Positions 36,952-62,904 of a DNA stretch of 64,000 nucleotides are shown here, piece by piece. The stretch covers positions 477-64,476 of the forward strand of contig JAZQCG010000012.1 in the NCBI GenBank assembly GCA_045546155.1, in the 5' to 3' direction. A program made the position numbers and the translations under genes. The DNA comes from Candidatus Enterousia sp. (lineage in GTDB: Bacteria; Pseudomonadota; Alphaproteobacteria; Rs-D84). The notes under the pieces were generated by a model. The model had not been told where the DNA came from, ran no database searches, and was given only the letters and a program-made list of their open reading frames with translations. Within the stretch, counting starts at the first letter, position 1. The number at the start of each line of letters is the position of its first letter.

Positions 36952-39855
36952 ATGAAAAAAATTGCAATTTTTTCTATGTTAATCGCGGGATTCATGATGT
37001 CTGCGGATGCGGCGACGCGTGGACGTACAACGCCGGCAACGGCATCGAATAGTGGTGCGGCTAAGCCAGTGGCGGCCCGTGCGGCGACTGGGGCACGTAC
37101 AGCACCACGTGCAGCGGCGCCGGCGGCATCAACGTCGAATACGGTTGTTCGTGGTCGTGCGGCGACTGTGGCGGCCAAGCCAGTGGTCGCAGCGCGTGCA
37201 GGTACAACGCAAAAAGTTATCAATTCTGGAACCAAGGTGTCGACAGCGGCAAAAAATGTTGTGGTTAGTGAAGAGTGTCGTGCAAAATTCGAAGGCTGTA
37301 TGGATGCATTCTGTATGCTGGATAATGAAACCGGCGGGCGTTGTATTTGCAGTGATAAAAATGCAGAATATGATTCTATTTTGGCTGAAATTGAAAAGCT
37401 GGATCAACAGTCCTATAAAATGGCGACCGTAGGGGTAGAACGTCTGGAAATGGGTGACGATGCCGAAGCGGCGATGAGTATGGCAAAGTCGGTTGCAGAT
37501 TCATTGGCAGAAGATGAAAAGAAGGAAGCATCGCGTGCACGTCGTACTTTGGACTTGTCAATGTGGGATACAAATGTTGACTTTGAAGAAGAAGTGGATG
37601 TTTTTGGTGCGGCGGCATCGGATGGTATCGAAGGAAAAGAAGGTGATGCGCTTTATGTTGCAGCGGCTAAGTTGTGTTCAGCGCAAATCCCAGAGTGTGC
37701 ATCTGAAATGACGTTAATGAAAACATTATATGGTCAAAAGATTCGTTCGGATTGTGCTGCGTATGAAAACAGTTTAAAGCAACAGAAAAATGCTAGTGCG
37801 CAAAAATTAGCAGCGGCAGAACAGGCGTTGCGTCAAACTGCGTTGGAACAGTATCGCAGTGCGAATAAATATGATTTAGGTCAATGTACAGTTCAGTTTA
37901 AGAAGTGCATGCAGACAACAGGTGGCTGTGGCGATGATTTTTCTGGATGTGCATCTGTGTCGGCGATGGATTCAACGAATTTGCGTAAAAGCACAACACG
38001 TGGCTCAAAGCCATATCAGATTAAGGGGACTGTAACCACTATTGAAATTTCTGCATCAACATATGATGCGTTGGTCGCAAAAAAGCCATTGTGTGAAAAT
38101 ATTACAAAATCCTGTGTTGCGGTTGCAGATCAGGTTTGGGATACTTTCCTGCGCGAAGTTGCACCCCAGGTAAAATCTGCAGAATTAATTGCCGAAGATA
38201 AAGCGCGTCAGGATTGTATTGGAAATATTTCATCGTGTTTCCAAAAGGCGTGTAAGGATACAATGGATCCAAATGACCCAGATGGTTCATATGATATGTG
38301 TTTGTCACGACCAGAAACAATGCTGAATTTGTGTAAAGTTCCGCTGAACGCGTGTGGTATTGATGCTTCGTCGGCGGCTGCGGCACAACAGTCACAGATT
38401 TGGGATTTCGTAACGGCAAGATTAGCATCAATGCGTGTCGATTCTTGCACGACAGAGGTAAAAGAGTGTCTGCAATCCCCAGACAGATGTGGTGAAGATT
38501 ATTCACAGTGCATCGGCTTGGATTTGTCTGATTTGCGTGCAATGTGTCCGTTGGAAAAACTGGTTGGTTGCCAGAAGGAAGTTGGTATGGATGAAGAATC
38601 TGGTAAAAAGACTTTTGCGGCATCATGGGACTACATAGACAGTGTTATCCAAGGAATTTGGTTGGGAATTGATAATTCTATGTTGGAACAATGCCAGAAT
38701 CTGGTTAATGAAAAAATGCTTGAAGTTTGTGGGGATACCTTGTCCTGTGAAGCGGCATTTGCATCAGATAAGGCGATTGGTACAGACAGCTTGACATCAT
38801 ATACGGATAAAAATGGTGACTTTGTAATTGATGGTTTGATTTCATTTGGTAATGTTCAAATAAACCGGATTACAGACGAAGAAAAAACACGTGATGAAAA
38901 CGTAAAATTTGGCACGTATGAGGTTGATATTGCGGGATACGCAGATCGTATTTCGGATGCGGATACAGTTGCTAAGTCGCGTGTTATTTCTGCTTTGCAG
39001 TCAACGGCGAACAAGATTAATCAAACAATTGCTGTGATTTCACAGGATTCAAAAATCAAGATGTGTGTCCAAGGGCGCGATATGTCCCAGGTACGTACAC
39101 GTGAAGATGCGCGTACAACATCAACGGCGCGTTATCCGCACTTGTTGGATTCTGCGATAATGGCGATTGTAGAATCTGGGATTGATCGTGCTAACAAGAA
39201 TTATACAGAAAAGTATAATGGTTTGGTTGAAAAAGCATTGGAAACAGCAGATGACCAGGTAAAATCTGTGCTGTGTGCGGCAATGGCTTCGTCCGAAGAA
39301 CCAAAGTGTGCTAATTGGCGTCCGGCAAATCTGATTGACAGAATTACTGGGGCCAGTGTTCAAGATGGTCGTGTTTGTACAGAATACGCCAGCAGTGTTT
39401 TTGATACAATCTTTCAAGAAGATTCAGGTGCAAAAACAGGTATGAACGATGCAGGATTGTTTGCAACGAAATATGTTATTTCGGGGGCCAAGTTGGCAGA
39501 TTTAGCATCTGTTCAACAATCGGGTCATTCGGAATATGTTCAAACGGATGATTATGGTAACATGCTGGGACGTATAGCGATGAATTCTTCGTATTCTGCG
39601 ACAAATAATACATGTACGTTGACAACGACGTCGACATTGTGTGAAGATGCGGCGGCGGTGGTAACAACAAACACATCAGAGGTTTGCGAATCAAATGGGT
39701 TTAGTTGGATTGGTGGAAATGGCTGTCGTGGTGGTGGTGGTATTTTCAGTGGTGGTAACAACAAGCACACAACCACATCTGTTCAGAATTATCATGGCAC
39801 AATGTGTGAAAAGTTCGCAGAACCAGTTGTAACCACAGAAGTTATAAAGATGTAA
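36952..39855 (+). CDS. Large Cys-rich secreted protein (967 aa), family member 1
   Basis: Signal peptide MKKIAIFSMLIAGFMMSADA, an Ala/Arg-rich N-region, and repeated Cx6C..CGxD[FY]xxC motifs (CTVQFKKCMQTTGGCGDDFSGC; CTTEVKECLQSPDRCGEDYSQC). Confidence 0.8.
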   Translation: MKKIAIFSMLIAGFMMSADAATRGRTTPATASNSGAAKPVAARAATGARTAPRAAAPAASTSNTVVRGRAATVAAKPVVAARAGTTQKVINSGTKVSTAAKNVVVSEECRAKFEGCMDAFCMLDNETGGRCICSDKNAEYDSILAEIEKLDQQSYKMATVGVERLEMGDDAEAAMSMAKSVADSLAEDEKKEASRARRTLDLSMWDTNVDFEEEVDVFGAAASDGIEGKEGDALYVAAAKLCSAQIPECASEMTLMKTLYGQKIRSDCAAYENSLKQQKNASAQKLAAAEQALRQTALEQYRSANKYDLGQCTVQFKKCMQTTGGCGDDFSGCASVSAMDSTNLRKSTTRGSKPYQIKGTVTTIEISASTYDALVAKKPLCENITKSCVAVADQVWDTFLREVAPQVKSAELIAEDKARQDCIGNISSCFQKACKDTMDPNDPDGSYDMCLSRPETMLNLCKVPLNACGIDASSAAAAQQSQIWDFVTARLASMRVDSCTTEVKECLQSPDRCGEDYSQCIGLDLSDLRAMCPLEKLVGCQKEVGMDEESGKKTFAASWDYIDSVIQGIWLGIDNSMLEQCQNLVNEKMLEVCGDTLSCEAAFASDKAIGTDSLTSYTDKNGDFVIDGLISFGNVQINRITDEEKTRDENVKFGTYEVDIAGYADRISDADTVAKSRVISALQSTANKINQTIAVISQDSKIKMCVQGRDMSQVRTREDARTTSTARYPHLLDSAIMAIVESGIDRANKNYTEKYNGLVEKALETADDQVKSVLCAAMASSEEPKCANWRPANLIDRITGASVQDGRVCTEYASSVFDTIFQEDSGAKTGMNDAGLFATKYVISGAKLADLASVQQSGHSEYVQTDDYGNMLGRIAMNSSYSATNNTCTLTTTSTLCEDAAAVVTTNTSEVCESNGFSWIGGNGCRGGGGIFSGGNNKHTTTSVQNYHGTMCEKFAEPVVTTEVIKM

Positions 39856-39860
39856 AATAT

Positions 39861-39908: not shown

Positions 39909-39936
39909 TTGACATTATTTTATATTTGTCTATAAT
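39909..39936 (+). promoter_or_regulatory. Consensus sigma70 promoter placed for a leaderless transcript
   Basis: TTGACA-N16-TATAAT. The ATG at 39944 begins 8 nt after the last base of the -10, and there is no SD. Confidence 0.6.
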
Positions 39937-39943
39937 CCTGTCT

Positions 39944-40756
39944 ATGAAATATGATATAAGTCAGGCTCGTTTAGCATATGATTCATACACCGGGAATTAC
40001 GGTGCGGCGAATTTTGCACAATTTTCGCCGGCTTATGCGCAGACCAATGAAGATGTTCGTGAAATTTTTTGGACACTAGCACCAAAGCCAGGGATGCATG
40101 TTTTGACAGTTGCGGGCAGTGGTGACCAGGCCTTGCATTATAAAATGGCGGGCGCGGCGCATGTTGATACGTTTGATATTACATTTAATGCAAAAATGAT
40201 GATGGATATTAAAACGACGGCGATTCAGAAATTAAGTCGGGCGGATTATGTCGAATTAATTAATTCTGTGTCGCGTATACGTAATATCGCGGATATACCG
40301 CAGTATCAGAAAATTGCTGAATTTTTGCCAGAAGATACCTGTCAGTATATTCAAAATATGCGTGGTGCGCGTTTGGTTCGTGGTGGCTTGTATTTTGAAA
40401 CGCTTTATAATGATGAGTATGCAAAATTGCAGAAATTGATTACAAAGCCTTTTAATTTTATATGGACGGATTTGTCAGAATTATCAACACATTTAACCCA
40501 ACAATATGATCATATTTATTTATCTAATATTTTACAATATCGTCCTGAACCGGGGTATGTTACACCATTGGTTTTGAATTTGGTCCGCTTTTTAAAGCCC
40601 GGTGGTTTAATTGTGGTAAATGTTGCGCCGTTCTTTGTCGACCAAGATATTGAGGCTGTTAGACATTTGAAGCATCAGGTCGAAGCCCAAGGTATTGGCA
40701 GAGTAAAAATGATTCGTAATCACTTTTTTGATATGTGTGTTTTAGAAAAAAGATAG
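39944..40756 (+). CDS. DUF3419/BtaA-like SAM-dependent enzyme, paralog 2
   Basis: VLTVAGSGDQALHY..AHVDTFDI..IKTTAIQKL and YDHIYLSNILQ..GGLIVV parallel 36057-36809. The ORF-track TTG start at 39926 overlaps the -10 box, so ATG 39944 is preferred. Confidence 0.5.
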   Translation: MKYDISQARLAYDSYTGNYGAANFAQFSPAYAQTNEDVREIFWTLAPKPGMHVLTVAGSGDQALHYKMAGAAHVDTFDITFNAKMMMDIKTTAIQKLSRADYVELINSVSRIRNIADIPQYQKIAEFLPEDTCQYIQNMRGARLVRGGLYFETLYNDEYAKLQKLITKPFNFIWTDLSELSTHLTQQYDHIYLSNILQYRPEPGYVTPLVLNLVRFLKPGGLIVVNVAPFFVDQDIEAVRHLKHQVEAQGIGRVKMIRNHFFDMCVLEKR

Positions 40757-40821: not shown

Positions 40822-42597
40822 ATGAAGCCAATTTATCGCATTTTGTTTTTTGTAATGTGCGTGTTGCCGGCTGTGGCTGGGGCAGCGCCTGTTGCCACGA
40901 CCGCAGGCAGTAATTTAACTGCGTATAACCCAAATTCAATGGGGTCGATTAATAATAATCAATGGAATTCTATGATGAACAGTCGTACGGGCTCGGATTC
41001 TGCACCGACGGCTGATTTTGGTAACTGTAATGCATTAATCATGCGATGTGCCCAGCCGAAGTGTGCATCGGGTGGATGTACGTCGATGGATGTAACGTTA
41101 CCGATTGTTAATGGATGTGTGAATTCTAATAACGCGTGTAAGCAATACGGTAATGATTTGGCGCAATCTATTGCGGCGCAAATCGTTGCGAATTCTAATG
41201 CAAAGGCCAGTCAGGCGGCCCAGGATGCTGCGGCAGCTGCGGCGGCCCAGTCCAGCCAGCAAATGGCCCAGTTGCAGCAAGAAATGAATATGCAGATGCA
41301 GCAAATGCAACAACAGATGCAGATGCAAAATCAACAGACTGTTTCGCAATTACAGGCCGCACTGGAAGAACAAAAACAGATTGCCGCTGCCGCCCAGCAA
41401 CAGGTGGCAGAAGCGCAGATTGCACAAAACGCAGCGCAATCATCTGGGTTAACGTTGGCCCAAGAAGATGCTGCATCACGTGGTATTGATTCAGATTTAA
41501 TTGTGCGCGAACAGGTAACAGGCCAGATTATGTCCAAGTTGGAAAATGCGGAAACCGCATTGAAAACGTTGCGTGACACGATGAAGGATGCGTTTGAATA
41601 TGCGGGCTGTGATTCCAAGGGAAATAATTGTAACAGTCCAAAACGTGTCAAGGTATTTAAGCAAAAGGCGATGGGATTCTTTGAACCGTATAACGATGTT
41701 TTGGATGAATTGTATGATGCCTTGATTACAGCCCAGGCGGTTGGTGTTGATATTACAGATATTTACATGATGCTTAATGGTTCGTGTAATGTTTGGGGTG
41801 AATATTTGTGTACTGGGGCGGTTGAGCTGAAAAAGGGCAATGAATCCACAGGTTTGTACGAGTGGCCAAGGTACGACAAAAGCAGTTGTCCAACCGATGG
41901 TGGAAAGTCTAAGGCATATGGTACGGTTATTGGTGGACATGAATGTTTTTATGGTGGTGTGATTCCGCCCGAAGACAGTCGTAATTGTACATTAAATCGT
42001 ACCTTTACAACGGCGGATGAACAGGATGATTTAAAGCGTGATTGGTTGGAAGGCGAGTCGGCTGATAATACAATTCGTATCGGTTGTGCATCCAGTGCGT
42101 TGGAAAATTCTGTGCTTTTCCGTAATCGTAAAAAGCAGGCTTCGATTGATATTGAAACACTGGAACGCATTATTGAACAAGATGCGCCGCAAACATTTGG
42201 ACGGAAATATGCCGGCAAAAAAACAACTCAGCCAGATCCAGATGGCGTGAAATATTGCGCGGTTGGTGTTGGTGGTGTAGAACGTCTGGAACAGGCGGTG
42301 GCGCTGAAAAAATTACCAAAGGGTGCAATTTGTATTGATGAAAATGATTTGATGAAGAAACTGGAAAATGATGACTATGTTGTTGCAGTCGCCAGTCAGG
42401 CAGAATCAGTTGGTGAATATGCTAAGGTGGATTGTGAACATAACGATTGGAAGGGCAAGCCGCGCTGCATATGTCAGGAAAGTGGTGGTAAATACTATAA
42501 CGATGGTACGTGTGCTTGTGGTGGTGATCTGGTTGAATCCGGTGGTAAATGTGTGCCAAAAAAGAACAGTGTTTCAGTGACTCTGGGGGGGGGGTGA
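40822..42597 (+). CDS. Cys-rich secreted protein with Gln-rich coiled segment, family member 2 (3' end interrupted at a G10 tract)
   Basis: Start at MKPIYRILFFVMCVLPAVAGA (ATG 40822). CNALIMRCAQPKCASGGC; the QQMAQLQQEMNMQMQQMQQQMQMQNQQ stretch; C-terminal CxC modules. Stops at TGA right after the G run. Confidence 0.75.
   Translation: MKPIYRILFFVMCVLPAVAGAAPVATTAGSNLTAYNPNSMGSINNNQWNSMMNSRTGSDSAPTADFGNCNALIMRCAQPKCASGGCTSMDVTLPIVNGCVNSNNACKQYGNDLAQSIAAQIVANSNAKASQAAQDAAAAAAAQSSQQMAQLQQEMNMQMQQMQQQMQMQNQQTVSQLQAALEEQKQIAAAAQQQVAEAQIAQNAAQSSGLTLAQEDAASRGIDSDLIVREQVTGQIMSKLENAETALKTLRDTMKDAFEYAGCDSKGNNCNSPKRVKVFKQKAMGFFEPYNDVLDELYDALITAQAVGVDITDIYMMLNGSCNVWGEYLCTGAVELKKGNESTGLYEWPRYDKSSCPTDGGKSKAYGTVIGGHECFYGGVIPPEDSRNCTLNRTFTTADEQDDLKRDWLEGESADNTIRIGCASSALENSVLFRNRKKQASIDIETLERIIEQDAPQTFGRKYAGKKTTQPDPDGVKYCAVGVGGVERLEQAVALKKLPKGAICIDENDLMKKLENDDYVVAVASQAESVGEYAKVDCEHNDWKGKPRCICQESGGKYYNDGTCACGGDLVESGGKCVPKKNSVSVTLGGG
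42585..42594 (+). repeat. Homopolymeric G10 tract (candidate slipped-strand switch)
   Basis: Counted directly: ctct-GGGGGGGGGG-tgattg. Confidence 0.9.
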
Positions 42598-42727: not shown

Positions 42728-43462
42728 ATGAAAAAGCTGTTTGGTTTTTTATTGTGTGTTTCGGTCCTGGTGATTCCGGTGGTGTCGGGGGCGGCTGTGC
42801 TTAATGGGTGTGAAGACGAAAATAATGAGTTTATTACCCCTGAATTAGCACTGTGTTCGACACATGTGTTTAATATTCGTGGTGTAAAAAATCCAGATAA
42901 CGAAGCAGATCGGGGATATATGCGTGATGTTGTTGCGTTAAAAACAACTATTATGACCCAGCAAATGAATAAACAGTACGAATATCTGGAATCGATGATT
43001 CGTCGTTTCAAAACCCAGTTAGAAAAGGCTATATTGACAACGCGCCTGCAGGCATCGGGTGCGGGGGCGGATGAATCTTCGTCGTCGGGTGGTGGATCGT
43101 CGTCTTTTAAATCAAATGATCGAAGCATATTTATTTCTGGGGTTGAAAATTGCGATACTAAATTGTTGCCGTCGGATGTTTTGAGTTGTCTTAGCAGTAA
43201 TTTGACGACAATTTCCAATATGTCGATTAATGGCAGTGAAGTTACATCAGAGGTTCGTAAGCAATTTGGAAATGATTATAAGTTGCTGACACGGACGTAT
43301 GATGTAACTGACGCTAAATGTGCTACGACTAAAATTGATTGTACCAAGGATTCAGATCTAAGAAAAAAACAAAATTTCCAAGAGTGTATGGATAATGCGC
43401 GTTCATGTATTCGTGACAAGATGTACAAGTTGAATTTGGAAGAACAACGGAACAGAAAATAA
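42728..43462 (+). CDS. Secreted Cys-containing protein (244 aa), family-associated
   Basis: Signal peptide MKKLFGFLLCVSVLVIPVVSGA. The ATG abuts the TAA of the out-of-frame extension of the preceding gene. Confidence 0.65.
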   Translation: MKKLFGFLLCVSVLVIPVVSGAAVLNGCEDENNEFITPELALCSTHVFNIRGVKNPDNEADRGYMRDVVALKTTIMTQQMNKQYEYLESMIRRFKTQLEKAILTTRLQASGAGADESSSSGGGSSSFKSNDRSIFISGVENCDTKLLPSDVLSCLSSNLTTISNMSINGSEVTSEVRKQFGNDYKLLTRTYDVTDAKCATTKIDCTKDSDLRKKQNFQECMDNARSCIRDKMYKLNLEEQRNRK

Positions 43463-43490
43463 AAAAATCCCGCGTCTGCGGGATTTTTTT
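43461..43490. terminator. Bidirectional rho-independent terminator
   Basis: aaaaaaatcccgc-gtct-gcgggattttttt between convergent genes. Confidence 0.75.
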
Positions 43491-44481
43491 AATCGCTGAT
43501 TTCGTCTGGGGATTTTATGATTTGAATTCCCATCGATTCCCATGTTTTGCACAATGTATCAATATCCATTATGTTTTTAGCCCCCAGGTACAATGTCGGT
43601 ATTAATTTGCGTTCTGTGGCAATTTTTGTGACGCGTGCAATTGGGGATTCGATTTGTTTGCCGGTTGCAAACCAGAATTCGTCGTCGCATACCCAAAAGT
43701 CTTCATCGATGTGTGATACGATTGCGTGTTTGTCTGTGATGATAATGTCATCAATAATTTCGTATTGTTTGCCGGTTGAATCCAGATATTCTGATATTGG
43801 GTTGGATTGGGTGTTGTCTAGGGTGTCGTCAAATGTTATGTCTGTAAATGTTGGTGCAGGCATTTGGGTAAAATCGGGTGTCAAGAAATCAGAATCAGGG
43901 GTCGTTGGTTCGATATCAAAGTCTGATGGTAATGGGATGTCGTCCAATTCGGATTCGATTATCGGTGTTGCCATGTCGCTTATTGGTTGTGGGATTTGTG
44001 AAATTGGTTGATTAAATGCAGAACGCTGTTCGGGGGTGATGTTCATACGTGCCCGAATATATGCAGTGCGTAATTCAGACGGCAATTCGTCGGGTAATGC
44101 ATCCTGTTGTGGGGCAGATGTGGCGTTTGATTTTTTTTCTTCTGGGGTATCTGGGGCGGGGGGATTTATTAGTGTTGGTTGCATGTTTGCCCAAATCTTT
44201 TTTACAGGTTTTGGGACTGGGACGGTAACCAATGGCTTTTTTGTGCGTATGATTAATGTTGTTGTTGCGATGTACAATGGTAATGCCGCCAGCAGCAGTA
44301 TCCCAAATACAAAGCCCGGAAATCCGTTCAATTTGGCATGAAACAGGTAGCGCCAATATGCCCCGGAAAACATGTTGAAATTGAATAGAAACCTTAATAT
44401 TGCCCACATTGTGGCCGTATAGCACACGGTCCAAATTATGGCGTATTTGTGAGTCTTTAAAATTTCAAATATTTTTTTCAT
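43489..44481 (-). CDS. Membrane protein with Pro/Asp-rich linker and globular C-terminal domain, hypothetical
   Basis: Start set at MKKIFEILK. Two or three N-terminal TM helices, then a low-complexity PxP/acidic linker. Confidence 0.55.
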   Translation of the reverse strand: MKKIFEILKTHKYAIIWTVCYTATMWAILRFLFNFNMFSGAYWRYLFHAKLNGFPGFVFGILLLAALPLYIATTTLIIRTKKPLVTVPVPKPVKKIWANMQPTLINPPAPDTPEEKKSNATSAPQQDALPDELPSELRTAYIRARMNITPEQRSAFNQPISQIPQPISDMATPIIESELDDIPLPSDFDIEPTTPDSDFLTPDFTQMPAPTFTDITFDDTLDNTQSNPISEYLDSTGKQYEIIDDIIITDKHAIVSHIDEDFWVCDDEFWFATGKQIESPIARVTKIATERKLIPTLYLGAKNIMDIDTLCKTWESMGIQIIKSPDEISD

Positions 44482-44557
44482 CAAAAAGATTATAGACAAT
44501 CTGTGTAATTTGTCAAATATTTTTTGTCAAAAAGGGCTTTTTTTATAGCGCGTTTAA

Positions 44558-53298: not shown

Positions 53299-53379
53299 TA
53301 CAATGGGGGCCGAGTAAAAAATAGGGTGGACATATTTACGGATTATATGCTAAACTGAACTTAGTCAGAGAGAATAGTT

Positions 53380-56300
53380 ATGAAATATATCAGAATTTTG
53401 TTTCTTAGTTTGTTTGTTTTCCCATTTGGGGCGCATGCTGCGGGTACACAAAATGACTTTATGGTGGCGGCGCAATTATTGGCGGCGGCGCGTAATGCCG
53501 ATATTCAACAGGTTCAGGTGCTGGTTAATAATGGGGCTGATATTAACTATGTTGATGCGACGGGATTATCGTTGGTGTGTACAGCATTGATGAACAATGA
53601 CACACGTGCAGCCCAGATTTTGCAAATGTATGGCGCAGATGCATCGCAATGTGATCGCCAGATTAAAAAGTATAATAATCGAACAAAGCCAAAGCCCAGT
53701 GGGGGACTGTTTAGCGGGCTGTCTTCCGCCCAGAGTTTGACATTAGCGGCGGCGGGGGCCGCCGTTGTCGTAGGGGGGCTGTTATTATTAACAGATGTCT
53801 TTGACCCGGGTAATGATAATGAAAATTCTAACCTGTCGGGTGGCAATCGGCCCGGTTCTGGGGGAAATGGTGGCAGCACTGGGGGGACGGCAGGGCTAAC
53901 CGTGCCATACAGTCCAGCATATTTGTATGGGGATGTTTTAAAGCCAGGGGATAAAACGCAATATAATGCTAATTTAGCATCATGGAATCCATCCCAGGGC
54001 GGTATTCGTCAGGCAGACTTTAACTATTTTAGACCAACGGTTGAACCGGGAATTAGTAATTTTTTAACGGATAATATTCTGTTGCCGGTACAAAATTATT
54101 TGCTGATGATGCATGGCTATTCTGCGTTTGCAAACAAATATTTAGGCCAGGAAATATTTAGAAATTCAGCCAGTAATTTTGCCCCATATCCAATGGAAAA
54201 TTCCGCAGATGGTGGCAGACCGGTTCGTGTTGGCTTAGTAACGGCAAATGGTGTTAATCCGACTGGTTCAGCGGCGCGTGGTGATGAAAATAGTGTTGGT
54301 ATTTTATGGGCATCTGGGTATGGTGCGGGTGCTGATATGGACAGGGTTGATAAATTTTTGAACTATAATAAGCCTGCGAACGGTGTGCTAGGGGATGAAG
54401 TTTCAAGTATTGGATTTGATTTGTCGGGTACTGGGACGGCAATGAACCCATTTGCAAGTTCGTATGATAGCGCATTGATGAAAATCGTAGCAGGTTGGAC
54501 GGGCGACCGCGGCGGATATGAATACGAAGACAAGGCATATGAATATGGCGACTTCTGGGGATTTGTTCCCAATGGGCAGGTTGGTGTATTTAAAACCGGT
54601 AATGGCCAGGCGTTTGTAAATATCCCAAATGCAACCGATGGAGCGGTTCTGGGGACAAGCAGTTCTGCTGATGAAATTAAGGTTAACGATACAATCGTAT
54701 TAAATGGCATCACGTACAAGATGTCTTTGGCGGTGGATTCTGCGGTTACCAATCCAACAATAACAGTAAATGGTCAAACGTATAAATTGCCCGTCGAAAG
54801 TACTATGTTGCGTGGTGTGTGTGTCGGTGATGCAAATACGTGCAAGGATGTTTCTGATATTGCAGTGTACAAGGGGACGGATGGCTATTTTTATGTTAAC
54901 ACCACAGGGGGAAATAGCCCAGATGCGGTATACGTCGTAAAGGAAAATAATATTTATGCGCAAAAAGAATTGCAGGATGCTGATTATGCAAATTTTGAAG
55001 CGATGTTTAATGCTAAATCTGTTAGTGATGTGGTTGTAAATGTGTCGGTTATTCAGCCGTCACGTGCCATTGATTATGTGAAAATGTCTGATATGCCACA
55101 ATTGATGGATTTATTAGAAGCGTCCGCCGAAGATGTGTATTTGGGACTGGTTAATGATATTTACGATCGCGAAGGCGACCAAGATGTTTCCCAGCGGAAT
55201 TTTGCAAACCAATTGTTGGGTGGTTATAACGCCAGTTCGCCAATTATGGTTATGCCGGCGGGGGAATTTGTGTATGGATACGGCGAAGGAAAATCTTTGT
55301 CTGTATTGGATGCTACGTTTGAAAACTATGCGCCGGTTGCGTATCCTAATCTGGAGCACTTGTTTATGACTGTGGTTGCGGTACGCCATAAATCAGGTAC
55401 AGACAAAGCAAATTCTATTGAAGGCTATGGTAATGGTGTTGGCAATGATTATGGACCGTTAACATTGTCATATTGGACCGACTTTAATGGAACATTGGAC
55501 GATACGTCGGATGATATTACATATAAATCACGTAAATGTGGCATTGCTGGTTTGGGTATCAATGGAATTGACCCATGGTGCTTTGCCGCAGCAGGTGCAA
55601 ATTCAGAAATGGCAACAGCAGCGGCGGCGGGGTCGGTTGCAGCTGTGAAGGCGGCATTTGCAAAAACACAAATGTCGAATTCTGAGTTGTTTACGTTATT
55701 GGCGTTGACGGCGGATGGACCATATTTGGGAACTAATGACGATGGTGTTGCGTATACAAAACAGAGTTTGGCAAAGTATTTGCAAAATATGTATGAATTG
55801 CCCCCAGAATATTACGAAGATGACTTTGATTTAAATACAGATGCAGGAGCGGCTGGATACTTAAATGCCTTTGCAGAGGTTTATGGCTATGGATTAATTA
55901 ATCTGGAACGTGCAATGACACCGAATAAAACCCTGTATTTCTTTGATGGAAATCAGATTGTATCCGGCGATAAAAATGCATATTGGGGTTCAACAAAAAG
56001 TACCAGTGTGCGTGCGTCCAGTGTTTTGAATCTGGCGGGGGCGCGTGTAAGTGCATCTGTGTTTGATGTGCTGGAAAGTGTAGATGGAACAATGCGTTTA
56101 CCGCGTGTGTGGAAAAATGAATTTGCGCTGGGGAATACGACCAAACGTGGCCTTTATATGGGGGATGTGTTGGGGGATTTCAAAGTACGCAAAGACGCAC
56201 CATCCATAACAGAAGTTGGAAATATGTCATTGTCGATGGCGATGTCGGAACGCGCATATGTTGATAATATGGGGGGATTGGATAATTTGTCATTGGCATA

Positions 56301-57156
56301 TTCAAATGATAATTGGAATATGCGCGCATCATATCAGCACTATTTCACAGATGGTATGTCGCGCTTTAATGGTATGGCGAACCCAGTATTAAATTTGGCA
56401 TCTAATGTTGTGATGACGGGGGCAGAATATAAATCTGGGAATTGGTCGTTCGGTGGTCGTGGATATTCGGGCCTGGTTACGGATGAAAGTTTGCTGGAAA
56501 ATGATCCAACGATTTCGGCGCAATATATGCCAGGACGTCTGGGACGCATGTCCGGCGCAGAAAGCCATGTTGCATATGGCAATGATAAATTTGGATTTAC
56601 TGCATCGGTTGGTGCAGCACGCGAAAGTGATACATTGCTGGGGGCGGTGACGGATGGGTTGTTGGCCTTGGGCGCGGGGGATACAACATATGTTGATGTT
56701 GTGTCGCGATATGATTTTTCGGACGACGTTGGATTTACTGCACGTGCAACATTTGCACGCACAACATCTGATGCATCAGGGGCGCTGATTTTGGGGTTGA
56801 CCGATATTGAATCTAATTCATTTGCGTTTGGTGCAAATATTGGGAATTTTGAATTTACAGTTGCACAACCGCTGGCAATCACAGATGGGGCACTGCAATA
56901 TGCCCACGCAGAATATGATGTGGTTGAGGTTGCCAAAGGACAATATGACCTGGTGGTGCGGGATGCAGGGGTGGCTGATTTATCAATGCGTCCAGATAAT
57001 CGTGAAGTGCGCTTTACTGCGACATATCGTCATCGTTTTGGTGAATTCACAGATGGTGCATTGGGATTAGTTTATCGTGTAAATCCAAATCATACGGATG
57101 ATTTTGGTAATGAATCAATATTCATGATGAAATTGGCGCATCGTTTGGGAATCTGA
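53380..57156 (+). CDS. 1258-aa protein: signal peptide, ankyrin repeats, hydrophobic segment, large passenger-like region, C-terminal beta-barrel-like domain
   Basis: ANK: AARNADIQQVQVLVNNGADINYVDATGLSLVCTALMNNDTRAAQILQMYGADAS. Hydrophobic: LTLAAAGAAVVVGGLLLL. The last roughly 300 aa show alternating amphipathic strands (NLSLAYSNDNWNMRASYQHYF ... EVRFTATYRHRF ... IFMMKLAHRLGI). Confidence 0.7.
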   Translation: MKYIRILFLSLFVFPFGAHAAGTQNDFMVAAQLLAAARNADIQQVQVLVNNGADINYVDATGLSLVCTALMNNDTRAAQILQMYGADASQCDRQIKKYNNRTKPKPSGGLFSGLSSAQSLTLAAAGAAVVVGGLLLLTDVFDPGNDNENSNLSGGNRPGSGGNGGSTGGTAGLTVPYSPAYLYGDVLKPGDKTQYNANLASWNPSQGGIRQADFNYFRPTVEPGISNFLTDNILLPVQNYLLMMHGYSAFANKYLGQEIFRNSASNFAPYPMENSADGGRPVRVGLVTANGVNPTGSAARGDENSVGILWASGYGAGADMDRVDKFLNYNKPANGVLGDEVSSIGFDLSGTGTAMNPFASSYDSALMKIVAGWTGDRGGYEYEDKAYEYGDFWGFVPNGQVGVFKTGNGQAFVNIPNATDGAVLGTSSSADEIKVNDTIVLNGITYKMSLAVDSAVTNPTITVNGQTYKLPVESTMLRGVCVGDANTCKDVSDIAVYKGTDGYFYVNTTGGNSPDAVYVVKENNIYAQKELQDADYANFEAMFNAKSVSDVVVNVSVIQPSRAIDYVKMSDMPQLMDLLEASAEDVYLGLVNDIYDREGDQDVSQRNFANQLLGGYNASSPIMVMPAGEFVYGYGEGKSLSVLDATFENYAPVAYPNLEHLFMTVVAVRHKSGTDKANSIEGYGNGVGNDYGPLTLSYWTDFNGTLDDTSDDITYKSRKCGIAGLGINGIDPWCFAAAGANSEMATAAAAGSVAAVKAAFAKTQMSNSELFTLLALTADGPYLGTNDDGVAYTKQSLAKYLQNMYELPPEYYEDDFDLNTDAGAAGYLNAFAEVYGYGLINLERAMTPNKTLYFFDGNQIVSGDKNAYWGSTKSTSVRASSVLNLAGARVSASVFDVLESVDGTMRLPRVWKNEFALGNTTKRGLYMGDVLGDFKVRKDAPSITEVGNMSLSMAMSERAYVDNMGGLDNLSLAYSNDNWNMRASYQHYFTDGMSRFNGMANPVLNLASNVVMTGAEYKSGNWSFGGRGYSGLVTDESLLENDPTISAQYMPGRLGRMSGAESHVAYGNDKFGFTASVGAARESDTLLGAVTDGLLALGAGDTTYVDVVSRYDFSDDVGFTARATFARTTSDASGALILGLTDIESNSFAFGANIGNFEFTVAQPLAITDGALQYAHAEYDVVEVAKGQYDLVVRDAGVADLSMRPDNREVRFTATYRHRFGEFTDGALGLVYRVNPNHTDDFGNESIFMMKLAHRLGI

Positions 57157-57230: not shown

Positions 57231-57662
57231 ATGCATATTTATAATGTAAAGGCTGCGTTACGTGACAAGTTTTATGGCGAGCCAACCATATTATACGGTA
57301 CACCAAAAATGGATGCGCGCGCATTGGCGGCTTTGTTGGCGGGGGTTACGCGCTTGCGTGCATTAGATGGGCGTCATTATTGGTATTTCTTTGTAAAAGA
57401 TATAAAAAATCGTGATACGGTTCGTTTTTTGATGCGTCGTAATGGATTGCGTCCAAAATTTCATATGTCCGAATATTATGCAGAACCGTTGCCAGCATTT
57501 CGTGTGCCTTTGTCAGACGTTGTAAATTCACAGCATATTGCTGATTTTACTAATCAAATCAAAGATGCGTATACCGAAGATGATAAATTAGTCGTGGAAA
57601 TGGCGCGATATGTTGATACGGTTAAGACTAAATTGGAAAATTGTAAAAATAAATCTAAGTAA
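57231..57662 (+). CDS. Hypothetical cytosolic protein (143 aa)
   Basis: ORF with GGAG SD. No family recognised. Confidence 0.5.
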   Translation: MHIYNVKAALRDKFYGEPTILYGTPKMDARALAALLAGVTRLRALDGRHYWYFFVKDIKNRDTVRFLMRRNGLRPKFHMSEYYAEPLPAFRVPLSDVVNSQHIADFTNQIKDAYTEDDKLVVEMARYVDTVKTKLENCKNKSK

Positions 57663-57663
57663 A

Positions 57664-57689
57664 TTCCCCGCCAAATGGCGGGATTTTTA
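57664..57689 (+). terminator. Rho-independent terminator (start of the 112-nt direct repeat)
   Basis: cccgcc-aaat-ggcggg followed by aTTTTT. Confidence 0.7.
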
Positions 57690-57945: not shown

Positions 57946-58968
57946 ATGGCAGAACAAATAAGAAGCTTTTGGTCGCACCTGTGCGGGATATTTGGTGCAA
58001 TATTTGGCATGATTGCTGGCGGCACACTGGTCACGATTGAACATGCGGACGCAGCAGAATCTTATAGTAATCAAATTTTAAGTAATGGCGCGATTGTTAA
58101 TTATAAGTTCGGGCGTTATTATACCCCTTATTTTGTATCCTATGGTGGAAATGGATCATGTTTGAAAATCTGCGGCGATAGTACTTATGGTTGTGGTCAT
58201 TATTCTCGGTATTATGTTACATTTCTTGGCTGTGCCGATGGGTATTATAGCACGGGGTTGGTGGCTGAAAATACAAACATAACACTGCCTGTTGGTACTA
58301 CTTCAACACTTGGAACTGCTAGTACTACGATAGGGACTTTGACGGATAGAGGCATATGTAGAACATACAAATTATGTGGTAATTCGACCATGTATGATGC
58401 AGCGTGTAGTGGGAGCCTTTTTTATTCGCCATTTAATGGGCAATATATATCGTATGATGCGTTGCCAGAAACGCAGACCGACGGCTTGTGTAATAAATGT
58501 CCAGATTATGGAACATATGCGGCGGACACAATAAGCGCTATAGGCAAGGGGAATATTACAAGTTGTTTTATGTCCCCAGATACGGAATATTCCGATGAAA
58601 GCGATCAGGCGGATGGCGTTGCAACTGGGAAATTTATTTGGACCAATAGTTGTTTTTACCAAGACGATACGAATCCTGGTTTGACACCGTATTGTGATGC
58701 GTTGTTGGCAGAGGGAAATGATGAAAATTGTATATTATATCTGACCGCGGTTGCTATTAGCGCTGGTTTAGTGGAAACAACGACACAGATAGTGGGCAAT
58801 ATTTATGGTAATTATAATTCTGCAATTGATGAGGTACAATATGTTTTAAACAATAAAAAGGAAACTCTGATACGAAATAGTATGAGTTGTTCGGCGGCGA
58901 ATTGTTATAAAACTGCCCTAAAGACCTTAGGTGGAAGTTCTGCAAGAATTGAATATTATTATGATTAA
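57946..58968 (+). CDS. Cys/Tyr-rich exported protein with N-terminal signal anchor (340 aa)
   Basis: N-terminal hydrophobic LCGIFGAIFGMIAGGTLV..ADA, with many Cys, Tyr and Gly. Confidence 0.6.
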   Translation: MAEQIRSFWSHLCGIFGAIFGMIAGGTLVTIEHADAAESYSNQILSNGAIVNYKFGRYYTPYFVSYGGNGSCLKICGDSTYGCGHYSRYYVTFLGCADGYYSTGLVAENTNITLPVGTTSTLGTASTTIGTLTDRGICRTYKLCGNSTMYDAACSGSLFYSPFNGQYISYDALPETQTDGLCNKCPDYGTYAADTISAIGKGNITSCFMSPDTEYSDESDQADGVATGKFIWTNSCFYQDDTNPGLTPYCDALLAEGNDENCILYLTAVAISAGLVETTTQIVGNIYGNYNSAIDEVQYVLNNKKETLIRNSMSCSAANCYKTALKTLGGSSARIEYYYD

Positions 58969-58971: not shown

Positions 58972-59038
58972 AAAAAAAATCCCCCGAATATCACCCACGT
59001 AAAAACTTGGTTGCGTGGGGGCAGAACGGGGGATTTTT
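58972..59038. terminator. Compound bidirectional terminator
   Basis: Outer stem aatcccccg/cgggggatt and inner stem cccacg/cgtggg, flanked by A8 and T5 tracts, between convergent genes. Confidence 0.6.
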
Positions 59039-59765
59039 ACATTACGAAATCTTCGCCCAGGTATACTTTTTTTACCATTTCGTCTTTGACGATTTCTTCG
59101 GTTGTGCCATGTTTCAATATTTTGCCATCGTGTAAAACATAACTGCGATCGGTAATGCCCAATGTTTCACGAACGTTATGGTCGGTAATAATTACCCCCA
59201 GGCCGCGATTCTTTAACTGTGATACCAATCCACGAATATCGTTCACCGCAATTGGGTCAATCCCAGCAAACGGTTCGTCCAGTAATATAAACTTAGGATC
59301 GTTTGCCAATGCGCGGGCAATTTCAACACGACGACGTTCGCCACCCGACAGGGCGGTCGCAGGACTGTGCCGCAGGGATGAAATCGAAAATTCTTCTAAT
59401 AATGAATCTAATTTCTTTTTGCGTTTTTTCTTGTCTGGTTCGACAACCTCCAAGATTGCCATGATATTTTGTTCCACCGTCAGACCACGAAAAACACTGT
59501 TTTCCTGGGGCAGGTATCCGATATGCAGGCGCGCCCGCTGATAAAATGGCAGGTGGGTGATATTCTGGGAATTTAAAAATATTTGACCACCGGTTGCAGA
59601 TAGCTGGCCTGTTATGCAATAGAACGCCGTTGTTTTACCCGCACCATTTGGACCAAGTAAGCCGACCGATTCGCCCTGGCGTGCGATTAATGATACGTCT
59701 TTGATAACCATACGTTTGCCGTATGTTTTAGATAAGTGTTCAACACGCAGTACAGATTGCTTCAT
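59037..59765 (-). CDS. lptB: LPS export ABC transporter ATP-binding protein LptB
   Basis: 242 aa. Walker A GPNGAGKTT, signature LSGGERRRVEIARAL, Walker B ILLDEPFAGIDP, LptB-type C-terminus ..KVYLGEDF. Confidence 0.9.
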   Translation of the reverse strand: MKQSVLRVEHLSKTYGKRMVIKDVSLIARQGESVGLLGPNGAGKTTAFYCITGQLSATGGQIFLNSQNITHLPFYQRARLHIGYLPQENSVFRGLTVEQNIMAILEVVEPDKKKRKKKLDSLLEEFSISSLRHSPATALSGGERRRVEIARALANDPKFILLDEPFAGIDPIAVNDIRGLVSQLKNRGLGVIITDHNVRETLGITDRSYVLHDGKILKHGTTEEIVKDEMVKKVYLGEDFVM

Positions 59766-60268
59766 AATTTAATCACCATTTCGTCTGTAAATATTTTGTC
59801 GCCGTTGCTGATATAAATTTTTACATCACCAATTAAGCGAATTGTTTTTTTTGCACGATTGTATTCACCGGTATTTGCAATAAAGTCATATTTGACGCGT
59901 TCACCATCCTGGATTCGAACCGCATTGCCAGATACAGAATCCATATAGACTATGTCGGGGGTGTCATATTCTTGGCGACCGGTTTTTGCCTTTAGTCTAA
60001 ATGGTTCACCATTTTGATCTGTGCCTGCAAATGATGCGTTTGACATCTTGAACTGATTCGTGACGATGTCTGTCATGTTAATCGCAGAAATCGGTGTCCA
60101 CAATAATTCGTGGGTGAACAGTGATGTTGCAATCAATGCCACCACCATAACCAACCCCCATCCGGTAAAGAAAAACTGCCACAAACGTTTTAAACGTCTG
60201 TGTTTAAAGAATATAATAAAATTACGTCTATCTTTGTGCACGTGCCCAGTGTACCGCGCATAAAACAA
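59762..60268 (-). CDS. lptC: LptC-like LPS export protein
   Basis: Single N-terminal TM helix plus a beta-jellyroll-like pattern (FAGTDQNGEPFRLKAKTG...IRLIGDVKI). ATGA overlap with lptB. Start uncertain. Confidence 0.6.
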   Translation of the reverse strand: MFYARYTGHVHKDRRNFIIFFKHRRLKRLWQFFFTGWGLVMVVALIATSLFTHELLWTPISAINMTDIVTNQFKMSNASFAGTDQNGEPFRLKAKTGRQEYDTPDIVYMDSVSGNAVRIQDGERVKYDFIANTGEYNRAKKTIRLIGDVKIYISNGDKIFTDEMVIKL

Positions 60269-60327: not shown

Positions 60328-61146
60328 ATGAATAAAACTTTTCGTTTTTTTGTGGGATGTATGTGCATGGTCGCAATGCCGGCCATGGCGGCGGTGTCTA
60401 TTAAAAAGGCAGCGCCCGTCGCAACACAAGAAAGCTCTAAGTTGGATGGCGCAGGCAGTTTGGTTTCTACGGCCTTAAATTTAGTCGCAGGTGTCAAAGA
60501 TTTAAATGCAAAGGTTGATGCCTTGACCACAGAATGTCAGCCGACATCTGCGGAAATTACGTTTGTAAATGAAACTATTAAAGAGTGGGCAAAAACTGGT
60601 GCCGCCAGTGCCGAAGATGTTCAACGTAGCTTAAAACGCAAGCAATGCCAGGATTCAAGTGGTGTTGGCGGGTATCAGCATGCGGTTGAAATCGCGGTTA
60701 TGATGGATGATGGGTCTGAGATATGCTATGATTCCTTTAAAGGGGAAGGAAACGAAGGCATGGTTTGGGAAAATTTCCCACGTGTTGGAACGGCGACATA
60801 TTGTGATGATGGCTCAAGCTCGTGTGGAAAAAATCAAAAAAGTGTATCCGATATATATGAAATATTTAATCTGATTGATTTTACAGAGGCAGATTACACC
60901 AAACAAGAAGCAACAACCGCAGGTAAATTAATTGCAAAGATTGAAAAATGCTCTTCGGCTAGGTTAAGTCAGACCAAGAAGGAGTTGTGGGGTAGTTTCT
61001 TGACAGAATCAATTGGAAATATGGGGCAAAAAACCAGTACTGCGTCAATTATGGATACCGTCGGTGGCGTGGTTAGTGGTGGCGGCGGTGCAATGGGTGG
61101 TTTGTCAACCATTGGCAGCTTTATCACAAACACAATGAATAAATAA
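60328..61146 (+). CDS. Secreted protein with C-terminal Gly-zipper (272 aa), family-associated
   Basis: Signal peptide ..MVAMPAMAA, scattered Cys, C-terminal GGVVSGGGGAMGGLSTIGSFI. Confidence 0.65.
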   Translation: MNKTFRFFVGCMCMVAMPAMAAVSIKKAAPVATQESSKLDGAGSLVSTALNLVAGVKDLNAKVDALTTECQPTSAEITFVNETIKEWAKTGAASAEDVQRSLKRKQCQDSSGVGGYQHAVEIAVMMDDGSEICYDSFKGEGNEGMVWENFPRVGTATYCDDGSSSCGKNQKSVSDIYEIFNLIDFTEADYTKQEATTAGKLIAKIEKCSSARLSQTKKELWGSFLTESIGNMGQKTSTASIMDTVGGVVSGGGGAMGGLSTIGSFITNTMNK

Positions 61147-61230: not shown

Positions 61231-62904
61231 ATGAGAAATAAGTTTTCTTGCTTGTTTATTGCGCGTATGCTGGTGGCGACATCTGTGGTGGTTTTGGCTG
61301 GATGCGCTGGGTCTGGTAACGATATGGACCAGTGGGGGCCAATTGCAACACCAACGGTTGACTATATCGAAGGATTGGATGTTTATTCGGCGCCGCACAA
61401 AGATTCCTTTTTGAATCAATTGGCGATGAATTATCGTTCGTATGCAATTTATAACGCGCGGACCAGTGGGTATCCAGATATGGGGGAATTGTTCGCAAAC
61501 AAGGCGGTGGCAGCATTTAGTGGTGAAACACCGTTCCCAGAATCCTTGGATAATTGGCCGGTTGCAGACGAACAAATGTCGTTTGAATTGTATAATGCGT
61601 ATAATCAATTGATGGAACAGTTGAAAACAGATGCAGCGGATAATAATCCACAACTGGCAGCTGAGGCCCAGGCAAAGTTTGATTGCTGGTTGTCAGCAAC
61701 GGCCAGTGAACAGATGAAAACGGCTGCGCAGTGTCGTGATCGTTTCCAAAAGACTATTTCGGCATTGGCGGACTGCAAAGATGGTCGTGTGATTAATGTG
61801 GTTAAAGCGTCCAATGTGCCAAGTGTAGAAACAACAGTTGAAACAGTGTCAGAGGTTGCCGCTGTATCGGGTTGTGCAAATGGCGCATGTGCGGCTGAAA
61901 AGATTGTACAAACGGAAACTTATTATCCAGAAACACGTAATATGGCGGCGATGACGGATTCTGCGCGTACACGTGAAGGGGTTATTATTGTTAATAATGT
62001 TAATGTGCCAGAACACCTGATTAATCCAGTGCCTGTTCAGCCGGTTGTGTTTAACCAGAACATTTATGGTGGTGATAAAACAATTTCAAAAAGCGCAAAT
62101 GACAACAGTGTTCGCAACAGTAATAATAATGTCGCACCACGTGACTGTCCAAAAGATGATAAAGAGTGCCTGAGTGCGGTTATTAATCCATTGGTAATCG
62201 TAGAAGAAGAGCAGGTTGTAACGCCATGTGAACAACAACTGTGCCCAGAAGGCTTGCCGTGTCCGGAATGTGAAAAATGTCCAGAAGGTCAGCCATGTCC
62301 AGAAATGCCAATGATTAGCGAAGAATTGGTTACACGCGAAGAATTCATCAATATGATGATGGCGATGCGTGATGAATTGGCGGCGATTAATGCGCGTCTG
62401 GACCAGATTCAAGCGGCCCAGGGCGAAAAAACAATGATTAAGGTTCAGCAGATTCCATTAACGCCACAACAGCATGTTATGGAAGAAGTCTTTGAAGTTC
62501 GCTTTGATTTTGATAAAGCAACTATTAAGCCAGAATATCAGGAATTGATTAAGAAGTTAGCATCTGCGACCCAGGAAAATAAAAATATCAAGGTATCTGT
62601 TGTTGGGCATACAGATACAGTTGGAACAAGTAACTATAATTATGCATTGGGTGGACGTCGTGCCGAAGCGGTTCAAAAGATGCTGATTAAGTATGGTATC
62701 CCAGCCAGCCAGATTGTTGCGGTGTCCGCTGGCGAAGAAGGTTTGGCTGTGCCAACCCCAGATAATACACCAAATGCAGAAAATCGTCGTGTGCGTGTCG
62801 TAAAAGAAGTTCATTATGAAGAACCAGCTGCACCAGCACCGGTCGCAATCGAGGTTCAAGAATATTCAGGCGCGACATGCGGCGAATATGGCTGTGATGA
62901 ATAA
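61231..62904 (+). CDS. OmpA-family lipoprotein (peptidoglycan-binding C-terminal domain)
   Basis: Lipobox VVLAGC. Cys/Pro-rich CEQQLCPEGLPCPECEKCPEGQPCPE. C-terminal FDFDKATIKPEY...VVGHTDTVGTSNYNYALGGRRAEAV...NRRVRVV. Confidence 0.85.
   Translation: MRNKFSCLFIARMLVATSVVVLAGCAGSGNDMDQWGPIATPTVDYIEGLDVYSAPHKDSFLNQLAMNYRSYAIYNARTSGYPDMGELFANKAVAAFSGETPFPESLDNWPVADEQMSFELYNAYNQLMEQLKTDAADNNPQLAAEAQAKFDCWLSATASEQMKTAAQCRDRFQKTISALADCKDGRVINVVKASNVPSVETTVETVSEVAAVSGCANGACAAEKIVQTETYYPETRNMAAMTDSARTREGVIIVNNVNVPEHLINPVPVQPVVFNQNIYGGDKTISKSANDNSVRNSNNNVAPRDCPKDDKECLSAVINPLVIVEEEQVVTPCEQQLCPEGLPCPECEKCPEGQPCPEMPMISEELVTREEFINMMMAMRDELAAINARLDQIQAAQGEKTMIKVQQIPLTPQQHVMEEVFEVRFDFDKATIKPEYQELIKKLASATQENKNIKVSVVGHTDTVGTSNYNYALGGRRAEAVQKMLIKYGIPASQIVAVSAGEEGLAVPTPDNTPNAENRRVRVVKEVHYEEPAAPAPVAIEVQEYSGATCGEYGCDE

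Follow-up and report, generated by a model that had tools for sequence, protein, structure and literature searches.

The chlamydial outer membrane complex contains MOMP, OmcA and OmcB, and the glycine-zipper envelope lipoproteins include SlyB/Pcp, the Rickettsia 17-kDa antigen and proteins with YMGG-like zippers. The Hcp proteins of Helicobacter, which have Sel1-like repeats, are secreted repeat proteins whose helices are stapled by Cys pairs at regular spacing, and EGF-like, CPL1-like and CarboxypepD_reg modules are typical of extracellular binding proteins. Here we describe a gene cluster that resembles each of these systems in part. It lies between 36952 bp and 62904 bp of a 64,000-nucleotide stretch of contig JAZQCG010000012.1 (assembly GCA_045546155.1), hereafter the window, which derives from a Candidatus Enterousia-like bacterium of the order Rs-D84. 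The cluster takes up ~26 kb, or roughly 3% of a genome of <1 Mb. The proteins, which we have designated A to K, with one membrane protein named 43489 after its position, are very probably exported, disulfide-bonded envelope proteins that are conserved as a cluster. The conserved syntenic core consisted of A (36952), 43489 (on the - strand), D (44597), E (47438), F (48323), G (50473) and H (53380).

Genomes of Rs-D84 are ~0.75–1.0 Mb in size and lack respiration, the tricarboxylic acid cycle, flagella and the means to synthesise amino acids, nucleotides and lipids; glycolysis is incomplete (PMC12306168). RodA, MreB and MrdA are kept, so peptidoglycan is made, and an obligate partner-dependent lifestyle has been proposed (PMC12306168). 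The Rs-D84/Enterousia bacteria are uncultured and widespread in the guts of humans, livestock, rodents, birds and insects, and their mode of interaction is undescribed (PMC12306168). As Rs-D84 is also present in flagellate-free higher termites, it is not simply a protist endosymbiont (PMC11257099). No description of the proteins reported here was found in the literature on Enterousia, Rs-D84 and RF32.

A collection of 5.8 billion proteins contained >1261 homologues of protein A, every one of them annotated as hypothetical; the named homologues came from metagenome-assembled genomes (MAGs) of Alphaproteobacteria. A scan of one genome per GTDB species placed relatives of A at 379 genomic stretches, from which 79 distinct loci were retrieved for comparison. 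All 79 were from gut or rumen MAGs, many titled Candidatus Enterousia. One further observation concerns locus L063 (CAVGNU010000007.1), from a bin labelled 'Bacteroides fragilis', which had a methyltransferase-A arrangement of the Enterousia type with an A protein 52% identical to that of the window; the label is probably a case of bin contamination or mislabelling in the public record. Homologue searches found no plasmid or phage copies of the cluster proteins and, as the chromosomal context was also stable, a mobile-element origin was rejected.

Synteny was analysed by tblastn of the window proteins against 81 loci, with ~20 kb of sequence covered per related genome; those 58 whose sequence continued for at least 9.5 kb downstream of A were treated as informative. 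Homologues of D and of 43489 were each found in 48 of these 58 loci (the two genes being paired in 48), F in 39, E in 36, G in 33 and H in 28, where it adjoined E. The commonest order was A(+) 43489(-) D(+) [G F E](-) H(+). E, F and G were contiguous and collinear in every case, with gaps of 14–18 nt, and the blocks lay on either side of A or were inverted, including the D/43489 pair, yet the same genes stayed together. In many genomes the cluster adjoined the rpoA-rplQ end of the ribosomal super-operon, as it does in the window, where the end of this operon (secY, rpoA at 34379–35407 and rplQ at 35574–36011) is followed by the cluster. The homologues were thus strongly co-localised in related genomes and not scattered. 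The first-pass annotation, made from the window alone, had grouped nine Cys-rich open reading frames (ORFs), A to G, I and J, as one set, and it is here that the comparison departs from it, since A, 43489, D, E-F-G and H were conserved and B, C, I and J were variable. B and C were found in 3 of the 81 loci, J in 4, K in 7 and I in none.

Across relatives the core proteins shared 50–85% identity and almost every conserved Cys was fixed. Family lengths were tight for A, D, E, 43489 and H; F ranged from 279 to 1161 amino acids and G from 316 to 1236. The cores are under strong purifying selection, and turnover is fast in the accessory genes and in the F and G tails. In other genomes the place of the accessory genes was taken by different, unrelated Cys-rich proteins with signal peptides. 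Two relatives, L034 (10361–13219) and L047 (8550–11408), for example, encoded between D and G a 952 amino acid protein with a signal peptide and 7.1% Cys that was unrelated to the window proteins, which suggests a hot spot for accessory Cys-rich secreted proteins at this position.

All nine ORFs of the original grouping were present and were unusually rich in Cys: A and B contained 3.9%, C 3.7%, D 4.0%, E 6.9%, F 4.5%, G 5.0%, I 4.7% and J 2.9%, compared with a median of 0.8% in a set of 865 ORFs that lie outside the cluster, lack a signal peptide and come from the window or one of 80 related loci. Both methyltransferase-like proteins encoded beside A, the 43489 protein and H contained 0.5–0.9%. 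Non-cluster proteins with signal-peptide-like N-termini in the same loci had a median of 1.7% Cys against this 0.8%, and several unrelated ones reached 4–9%. Signal peptides were judged by a home-made heuristic requiring a K/R n-region, a hydrophobic h-region and an AXA-like site, and by this rule all nine ORFs (9/9) began with a signal-peptide-like N-terminus, as did H, K and the lipoprotein encoded at 46740. In A and F the signal peptide was followed directly by an Arg/Ala/Thr-rich low-complexity stretch. The N-terminus of D carried an almost invariant 'RMPTMPTLP' motif at the equivalent place, and these stretches of A, F and D might be sorting or wall-attachment signals.

A recurring Cys motif, which had been read by eye from the translations, was located at every place quoted (A residues 312 and 499, E residue 151, F residues 140 and 211), with a looser version at B residue 69. 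The strict motif occurred five times, compared with none in 2000 residue shuffles of the nine proteins. It proved to be the first two-thirds of a six-Cys unit, C-x6-C-x4-6-C-x6-C-x11-14-C-x5-7-C. Columns of the family alignments with at least 80% Cys numbered 34 in A, 22 in D, 15 in F and 20 of 20 in E, and those of E and F were all at 100%.

Protein E (288 amino acids; 47438–48304, + strand) consisted of a signal peptide and an all-helical body. Its 20 Cys were all invariant across 35 orthologues that were 54–83% identical to the window protein. The AlphaFold2 (AF2) model of E was all-helical, with a mean predicted local distance difference test score (pLDDT) of 72.7 that rose to ~90 in the C-terminal half, and Foldseek found no match to it in the PDB at E≤0.001. 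CHCH-type twin-CxnC hairpins were considered and rejected for the six-Cys unit, as the spacing differs and the second C-x6-C of E lies in a loop of the model and not in a helix.

Protein A (967 amino acids; 36952–39855, + strand) had no match in Pfam, NCBIfam or the PDB. Its signal peptide was followed by an Ala/Arg/Thr-rich disordered stretch, a putatively disulfide-stapled helical region containing two motif modules, a mixed alpha/beta region and Thr-rich C-terminal beta hairpins. The AF2 model (mean pLDDT 63, and <35 over residues 22–105, encoded up to 37270) predicted very long helices at residues 247–304, 392–436, 559–593 and 733–779 ahead of the Thr-rich hairpins; a Foldseek search of the PDB with this model also returned no match at E≤0.001. 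A was rejected as a trimeric autotransporter, its predicted C-terminal strands being Thr-rich and Cys-containing and a YadA_anchor match being absent.

Protein D (702 amino acids; 44597–46705, + strand) belonged to no PDB or Pfam family. Its layout was a signal peptide, a Pro-rich spacer, a highly conserved Cys-rich domain at residues 101–365 (median identity of 76% to the window protein), a putative glycine zipper at ~338–361, a variable helical region, a second at ~564–590 and a Cys-rich C-terminal domain. The Gly-zipper_YMGG match of D scored 18 bits, below the cut-off of 28.9, and 2 of 42 relatives matched a glycine-zipper profile at E≤0.01. The gene divergent from D, 43489 (43489–44499, - strand), encodes a protein of 336 amino acids with three transmembrane segments for whose family no Pfam or PDB match was found; hydrophobic N-terminal segments (21–39 and 55–86) are followed by a Pro/acidic linker and a conserved C-terminal globular domain.

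Protein F (710 amino acids; 48323–50455, + strand) had a signal peptide, an acidic spacer, six-Cys modules at residues 140–180 and 211–250, a putative glycine zipper at ~360–385 with Cys336 beside it, and a variable charged tail with EGF-like knots. The core of F (87–392) had a median identity of 61% to the window protein; for the tail this was 17%, with only 35% of it alignable. Protein G (941 amino acids; 50473–53298, + strand) began with a signal peptide, variable Cys knots, a CarboxypepD_reg-like beta-sandwich (299–371), an acidic spacer and a Gly/Ala-rich segment (~490–510). The conserved core at 481–657, which had one invariant Cys (Cys530), was followed by another Gly/Ala-rich segment (~637–660), Cys knots and an OmpA-like peptidoglycan-binding domain at 804–885 (PF00691, E=1.1e-13). 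The core of G showed 60% median identity and the N-terminal 270 residues were absent in most relatives. Among 29 relatives of G, 24 matched OmpA, 22–23 CarboxypepD_reg (PF13620/PF13715), seven CPL1-like (PF21671) and three cEGF (PF12662). The OmpA-like C-termini that had been proposed for G and K were borne out by PF00691 matches of 51.8 and 71.5 bits (E=1e-13 and 8e-20) against a cut-off of 27.2; in NCBIfam the equivalogs all fell below their cut-offs.

Protein H (1258 amino acids; 53380–57156, + strand; family length 1204–1237) comprised a signal peptide, ankyrin repeats at residues 30–95 that were matched by Ank_4 and by DARPin structures, a hydrophobic Gly/Ala segment at 117–143, a Gly-rich linker and ~1100 conserved residues without a fold match. 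This last region matched no Pfam, NCBIfam or PDB profile, PF03797 included. A word-based search with the C-terminal 559 amino acids returned hypothetical proteins of the same lineage and no autotransporter names. The first-pass annotation had called H a beta-barrel protein; this was not confirmed, as the N-terminal ankyrin repeats were all that the searches detected. A hydrophobic-moment test for a beta-barrel, which is crude and uninformative, gave z=0.4. The 330 C-terminal residues of H bear, as an impression by eye only, a likeness to an autotransporter beta-domain.

The first-pass annotation had regarded the nine proteins as paralogues. A, E and F, and weakly B, did have the motif module in common, and small EGF-like knots of the form C..W..CxC..C were visible in the window B, F and G; C, D, I and J had neither. 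BLAST among the cluster proteins gave nothing convincing. Comparison of family profiles with hhalign linked E to A (E=2.3e-5, 46 aligned columns), F to E (E=9.3e-5, 113 columns, covering both F modules), F to A (E=3.7e-4, 131 columns) and F to D (E=1.4e-4, 52 columns, consisting of 'AGxTFxC..FG' plus the zipper); that between G and D was not significant (E=0.05, 71 columns). An E-family HMMER profile searched against 1.84 billion representative proteins retrieved only 66 clusters, essentially of E-like proteins and fragments, and did not reach A or F, which indicates that the six-Cys module is too short and divergent for HMMER. The distribution of E is accordingly narrow. The paralogy suggested by these alignments is therefore partial and statistically modest, and a modular set with two recurring Cys modules describes the proteins better than nine paralogues.

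Matches in Pfam (2025) and NCBIfam (2026) across all the cluster proteins were to OmpA, CarboxypepD_reg, Ank, LptC, ABC and DUF3419 only. A, B, C, D, E, F, I and J matched no adhesin, S-layer or other family in these collections, in agreement with the first reading of the window, which could name none. Family-wide Pfam scans of D and F found nothing consistent, the knots of the window B, F and G were below every Pfam threshold, and PDB sequence and profile searches of A, D, 43489 and H returned nothing except DARPin against the ankyrin repeats of H. No cluster protein matched OmcA, OmcB or MOMP in Pfam or NCBIfam at E≤0.1. Sel1 (PF08238) was not matched either, and neither model, of E or of A, led Foldseek to a repeat protein. 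A, D, E, the F core, H and 43489 define at least six protein families for which neither Pfam nor NCBIfam has a model.

The four genes from 47438 to 57156 (E, F, G and H) had been proposed to form one operon. In the window they are co-directional, with gaps of 18 nt (E-F), 17 nt (F-G) and 81 nt (G-H), and the same was found in nearer relatives (e.g. L025 and L032). This part of the proposal did not extend to the other loci, in which H was mostly divergent from E. A promoter-like site (47391–47420, + strand; TTTGCA, an 18 nt spacer and a TG-extended TATAAT, a consensus match only) lies 18 nt upstream of E. The first terminator-like hairpin downstream of E on the + strand, readable on both strands, is at 57667–57682, with nothing comparable in between. 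Another such hairpin (46715–46741, + strand; 12 bp plus a T run) separates D from the convergent lipoprotein gene. Counts of promoter-like and terminator-like sites were not above those in shuffled sequence. The arrangement is suggestive of a single transcript in the window genome running from E through F, G and H to 57231–57662 (+ strand), a small non-secreted ORF of 143 amino acids without a Pfam match that followed H in 7 loci.

Gene A is flanked by genes for two DUF3419-like proteins with a SAM-methyltransferase fold that are 44% identical to each other, one of 250 amino acids without a signal peptide (36057–36809, - strand; PF11899, E=9.5e-9) and one of 276 amino acids (39926–40756, + strand; PF11899, E=1.3e-14). 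Both matches exceeded the cut-off of 28.2 bits (35.3 and 54.6 bits) and were partial, covering positions 5–151 and 28–121 of the 385 of PF11899. Co-occurrence of such genes with the cluster, which had been raised as a point to check, was found in 37 of the 58 informative loci, where a homologue lay ≤10 kb from A. These BtaA-like proteins possibly modify lipids or other small molecules.

Among the variable genes, B (591 amino acids; 40822–42597, + strand) encodes a signal peptide, the loose four-Cys motif at residue 69, a Gln/Ala-rich coiled region and C-terminal EGF-like Cys knots (538–578). C (244 amino acids; 42728–43462, + strand) is secreted by the rule given above and adjoined B in each of its three loci. 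A small lipoprotein of 185 amino acids with a Thr/Pro/Lys-rich repeat (46740–47297, - strand), previously suggested to be one, indeed has the lipobox LVGC (Cys28), and its homologue adjoined E in 7 loci. I (340 amino acids, 16 Cys; 57946–58968, + strand) starts with a hydrophobic anchor or signal. On the - strand at 59037–60268, lptC (59762–60268; PF06835, E=2.2e-6, 27.8 bits against a cut-off of 21) is followed by an ABC ATPase gene (59037–59765; PF00005, E=8.7e-36, 124 bits) that fits LptB, as the first-pass annotation had named them; the two genes overlap by 4 nt with no lptA between them. The LptC C-terminus had a faint LptA/LptD_N-like match. J (272 amino acids, 8 Cys; 60328–61146, + strand) is a secreted protein paired with K, and the pair adjoined the cluster in 4 loci. 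K (557 amino acids, 17 Cys; 61231–62904, + strand) is a lipoprotein with the lipobox LAGC (Cys25) and an OmpA-like domain at 424–519 (PF00691, E=7.8e-20).

Some other features of the window were recorded. GC skew was positive in every 2-kb bin from 1 to 64000 and nearly all genes were on the + strand. Long antisense or alternative-frame ORFs within the cluster genes, such as 36849–37235 (-) and 37007–37432 (+), are by-products of composition and not genes. The whole region is bracketed by two paralogous ORFs without a Pfam match, 33418–34071 and 63237–63884 (217 and 215 amino acids; 28% identical, E=1e-8), homologues of which lay in tandem, upstream of the methyltransferase gene and of A, in ~9–12 related loci. 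An integrase-like ORF of 337 amino acids (4823–5836, + strand), noted together with a tRNA-Pro at 10230–10306, matched Arm-DNA-binding, SAM-like and central domains and lacked a catalytic-domain match; possibly it is what remains of an integrase in a streamlined genome. Two APH/choline-kinase-like phosphotransferases (10402–11385 and 12859–13857) flank an MltG/YceG gene, and in the relative L001 an APH-like gene lies within the ribosomal operon region.

We favour, by a modest degree, the explanation that the cluster encodes a scaffold of the envelope, specific to the lineage and stabilised by disulfides, which is anchored in membrane and wall and bears variable modules that face outwards. What the data show are export signals (by the heuristic alone), conserved Cys, a modular build, synteny, confinement to this lineage and no homologue among known families. 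The core proteins would leave the cytoplasm through Sec and be oxidised in the periplasm, folding there with numerous structural disulfides, and E, A and the core of F would be built around the recurring helical six-Cys module. The even numbers of invariant Cys in A, D and E point to internal disulfides acting as staples in long helical proteins. D, F, G and H would most likely be held in a membrane by their Gly/Ala-rich, weakly hydrophobic zipper segments, G and the lipoprotein K may tie the set to peptidoglycan through their OmpA-like domains, and 43489 is the only candidate for an inner-membrane partner. Conserved cores would imply conserved internal contacts, and what would be expected of exposed parts that bind something variable is seen in the accessory genes and in the fast-changing F and G tails, with their EGF-like or Ig-like modules. 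The scaffold would plausibly help to keep the envelope intact and to attach the cell, which cannot make most of its own metabolites, to a partner or to material of the host. For the single parts of this explanation our confidence differs: that the proteins form one physical assembly is possible, at somewhat less than an even chance, and that attachment is the function is doubtful.

Several points weigh against the scaffold. Interaction between the proteins and surface exposure of any part of them are deduced only indirectly, and the signal peptides were assigned by a home-made rule and not by SignalP. The glycine zippers are putative, resting on composition and one sub-cut-off Pfam match, and the AF2 models of A and E are moderately confident (pLDDT 63 and 72.7; predicted template modelling scores 0.43 and 0.34). 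These bacteria are strict fermenters of anoxic habitats, a setting in which so much disulfide formation calls for an explanation, and with ~20 kb covered per genome a Dsb oxidase was outside the scope. Synteny may be generally conserved in small genomes, which would make clustering alone weak evidence of a common function. Finally, the core sequences are too conserved for adhesins under host pressure, a role that the tails alone would fit.

A rival view is that the proteins are functionally unrelated, rich in Cys as a habit of the lineage and clustered through low rearrangement or through a permissive, well-expressed region by the ribosomal operons, which we regard as unlikely. The raised Cys content of non-cluster signal-peptide-like proteins, the position of the cluster beside rpoA-rplQ in many genomes and the weak sequence similarity between the families would all agree with it. 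It fits poorly with a gene set that was kept together through several rearrangements, with E-F-G/H found on either side of A and D/43489 inverted, or with the invariable contiguity of E, F and G at gaps of 14–18 nt; nor would it account for a specific module common to A, E and F and a zipper segment common to D and F. A rigid outer-envelope lattice of the chlamydial kind, in which intermolecular and possibly redox-switched disulfides give osmotic and mechanical stability, overlaps with the scaffold and would be suggested by the many Cys-rich exported proteins of one cluster. As F has an odd number of conserved Cys (15), the core of G has a single Cys and their genes are always adjacent, an intermolecular bond between Cys336 of F and Cys530 of G is a speculative candidate. 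The 34, 22 and 20 conserved Cys of A, D and E are even in number, however, as expected of purely internal disulfides, homology to OmcA, OmcB or MOMP was absent from Pfam and NCBIfam, and a bacterium that has kept peptidoglycan synthesis genes (PMC12306168) and OmpA-type anchors does not need a substitute for the wall; we consider such a lattice quite improbable.

A known trans-envelope machine so diverged that its components escape recognition by sequence was also weighed. Candidates included secretion systems of type IV or type II and a Tol-Pal-like tether, with H as a type V autotransporter or A as an adhesin of the trimeric-autotransporter kind. The combination of the inner-membrane 43489, periplasmic helical and membrane-associated proteins, the peptidoglycan anchor G and the very large H is what would recommend it, along with a possibly beta-rich H C-terminus, autotransporter-like by eye over its last 330 residues, and the long helices followed by C-terminal beta hairpins in the model of A. 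Yet no component matched in Pfam, NCBIfam or PDB profiles, Foldseek of A and E was blank, the conserved core is without an ATPase or other energising component, and the hairpins of A, read from its sequence as Thr-rich and Cys-containing, look unlike membrane strands, so that we hold this to be very unlikely. The envelope scaffold could also be extended to a bolder proposal, to which we give a low probability, that the seven core proteins form a new envelope-spanning, disulfide-stapled structure, a signature organelle of Rs-D84 whose variable F and G tails would keep the cell on the surface of a partner microbe or host to obtain metabolites that it cannot make. Here 43489 would anchor it in the inner membrane, G in the wall, and the glycine-zipper proteins and H in the outer membrane, and the structure would parallel, in Gram-negative cells, the apparatus for attachment that has been proposed in Patescibacteria.

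The cluster is a prime candidate for the part of Rs-D84 biology, envelope and attachment, on which its lifestyle would rest. The six-Cys helical module could become a family model for annotating these MAGs, and the proteins, if abundant and surface-exposed, would be natural targets for antibodies or for sorting coupled to fluorescence in situ hybridisation, helping to find and enrich the organisms.

When set against the described systems, the cluster shares with the chlamydial complex several Cys-rich, Sec-exported envelope proteins in a partner-dependent, reduced-genome bacterium, with disulfides presumed central to envelope stability. It differs in that its conserved Cys mostly come in even numbers and belong to a helical module, an arrangement suggestive of internal staples, in its OmpA peptidoglycan anchoring, and in that no developmental cycle is known. 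The PF00691 domains of G and K are bona fide and K has a lipobox as in Pal; unlike OmpA, Pal and MotB, however, the domain of G ends a modular protein of 941 amino acids with Cys knots, an Ig-like sandwich and two Gly/Ala-rich segments. D, F, G and H resemble the glycine-zipper lipoproteins in their GxxxG/AxxxG-rich, weakly hydrophobic stretches of ~20–25 residues but have no lipobox, and their zippers lie inside very large Cys-rich proteins. As in Helicobacter Hcp, Cys-stapled helices would occur in secreted proteins, whereas the Cys spacing follows a six-Cys unit and not tandem arrays of a single repeat. EGF-like or CPL1-like knots and CarboxypepD_reg sandwiches were found in the variable parts of the G relatives, on the tails only and not on the conserved cores. 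The families themselves are undescribed; the general kind to which they belong, Cys-rich envelope proteins with OmpA wall ties in a reduced-genome bacterium, is already familiar.

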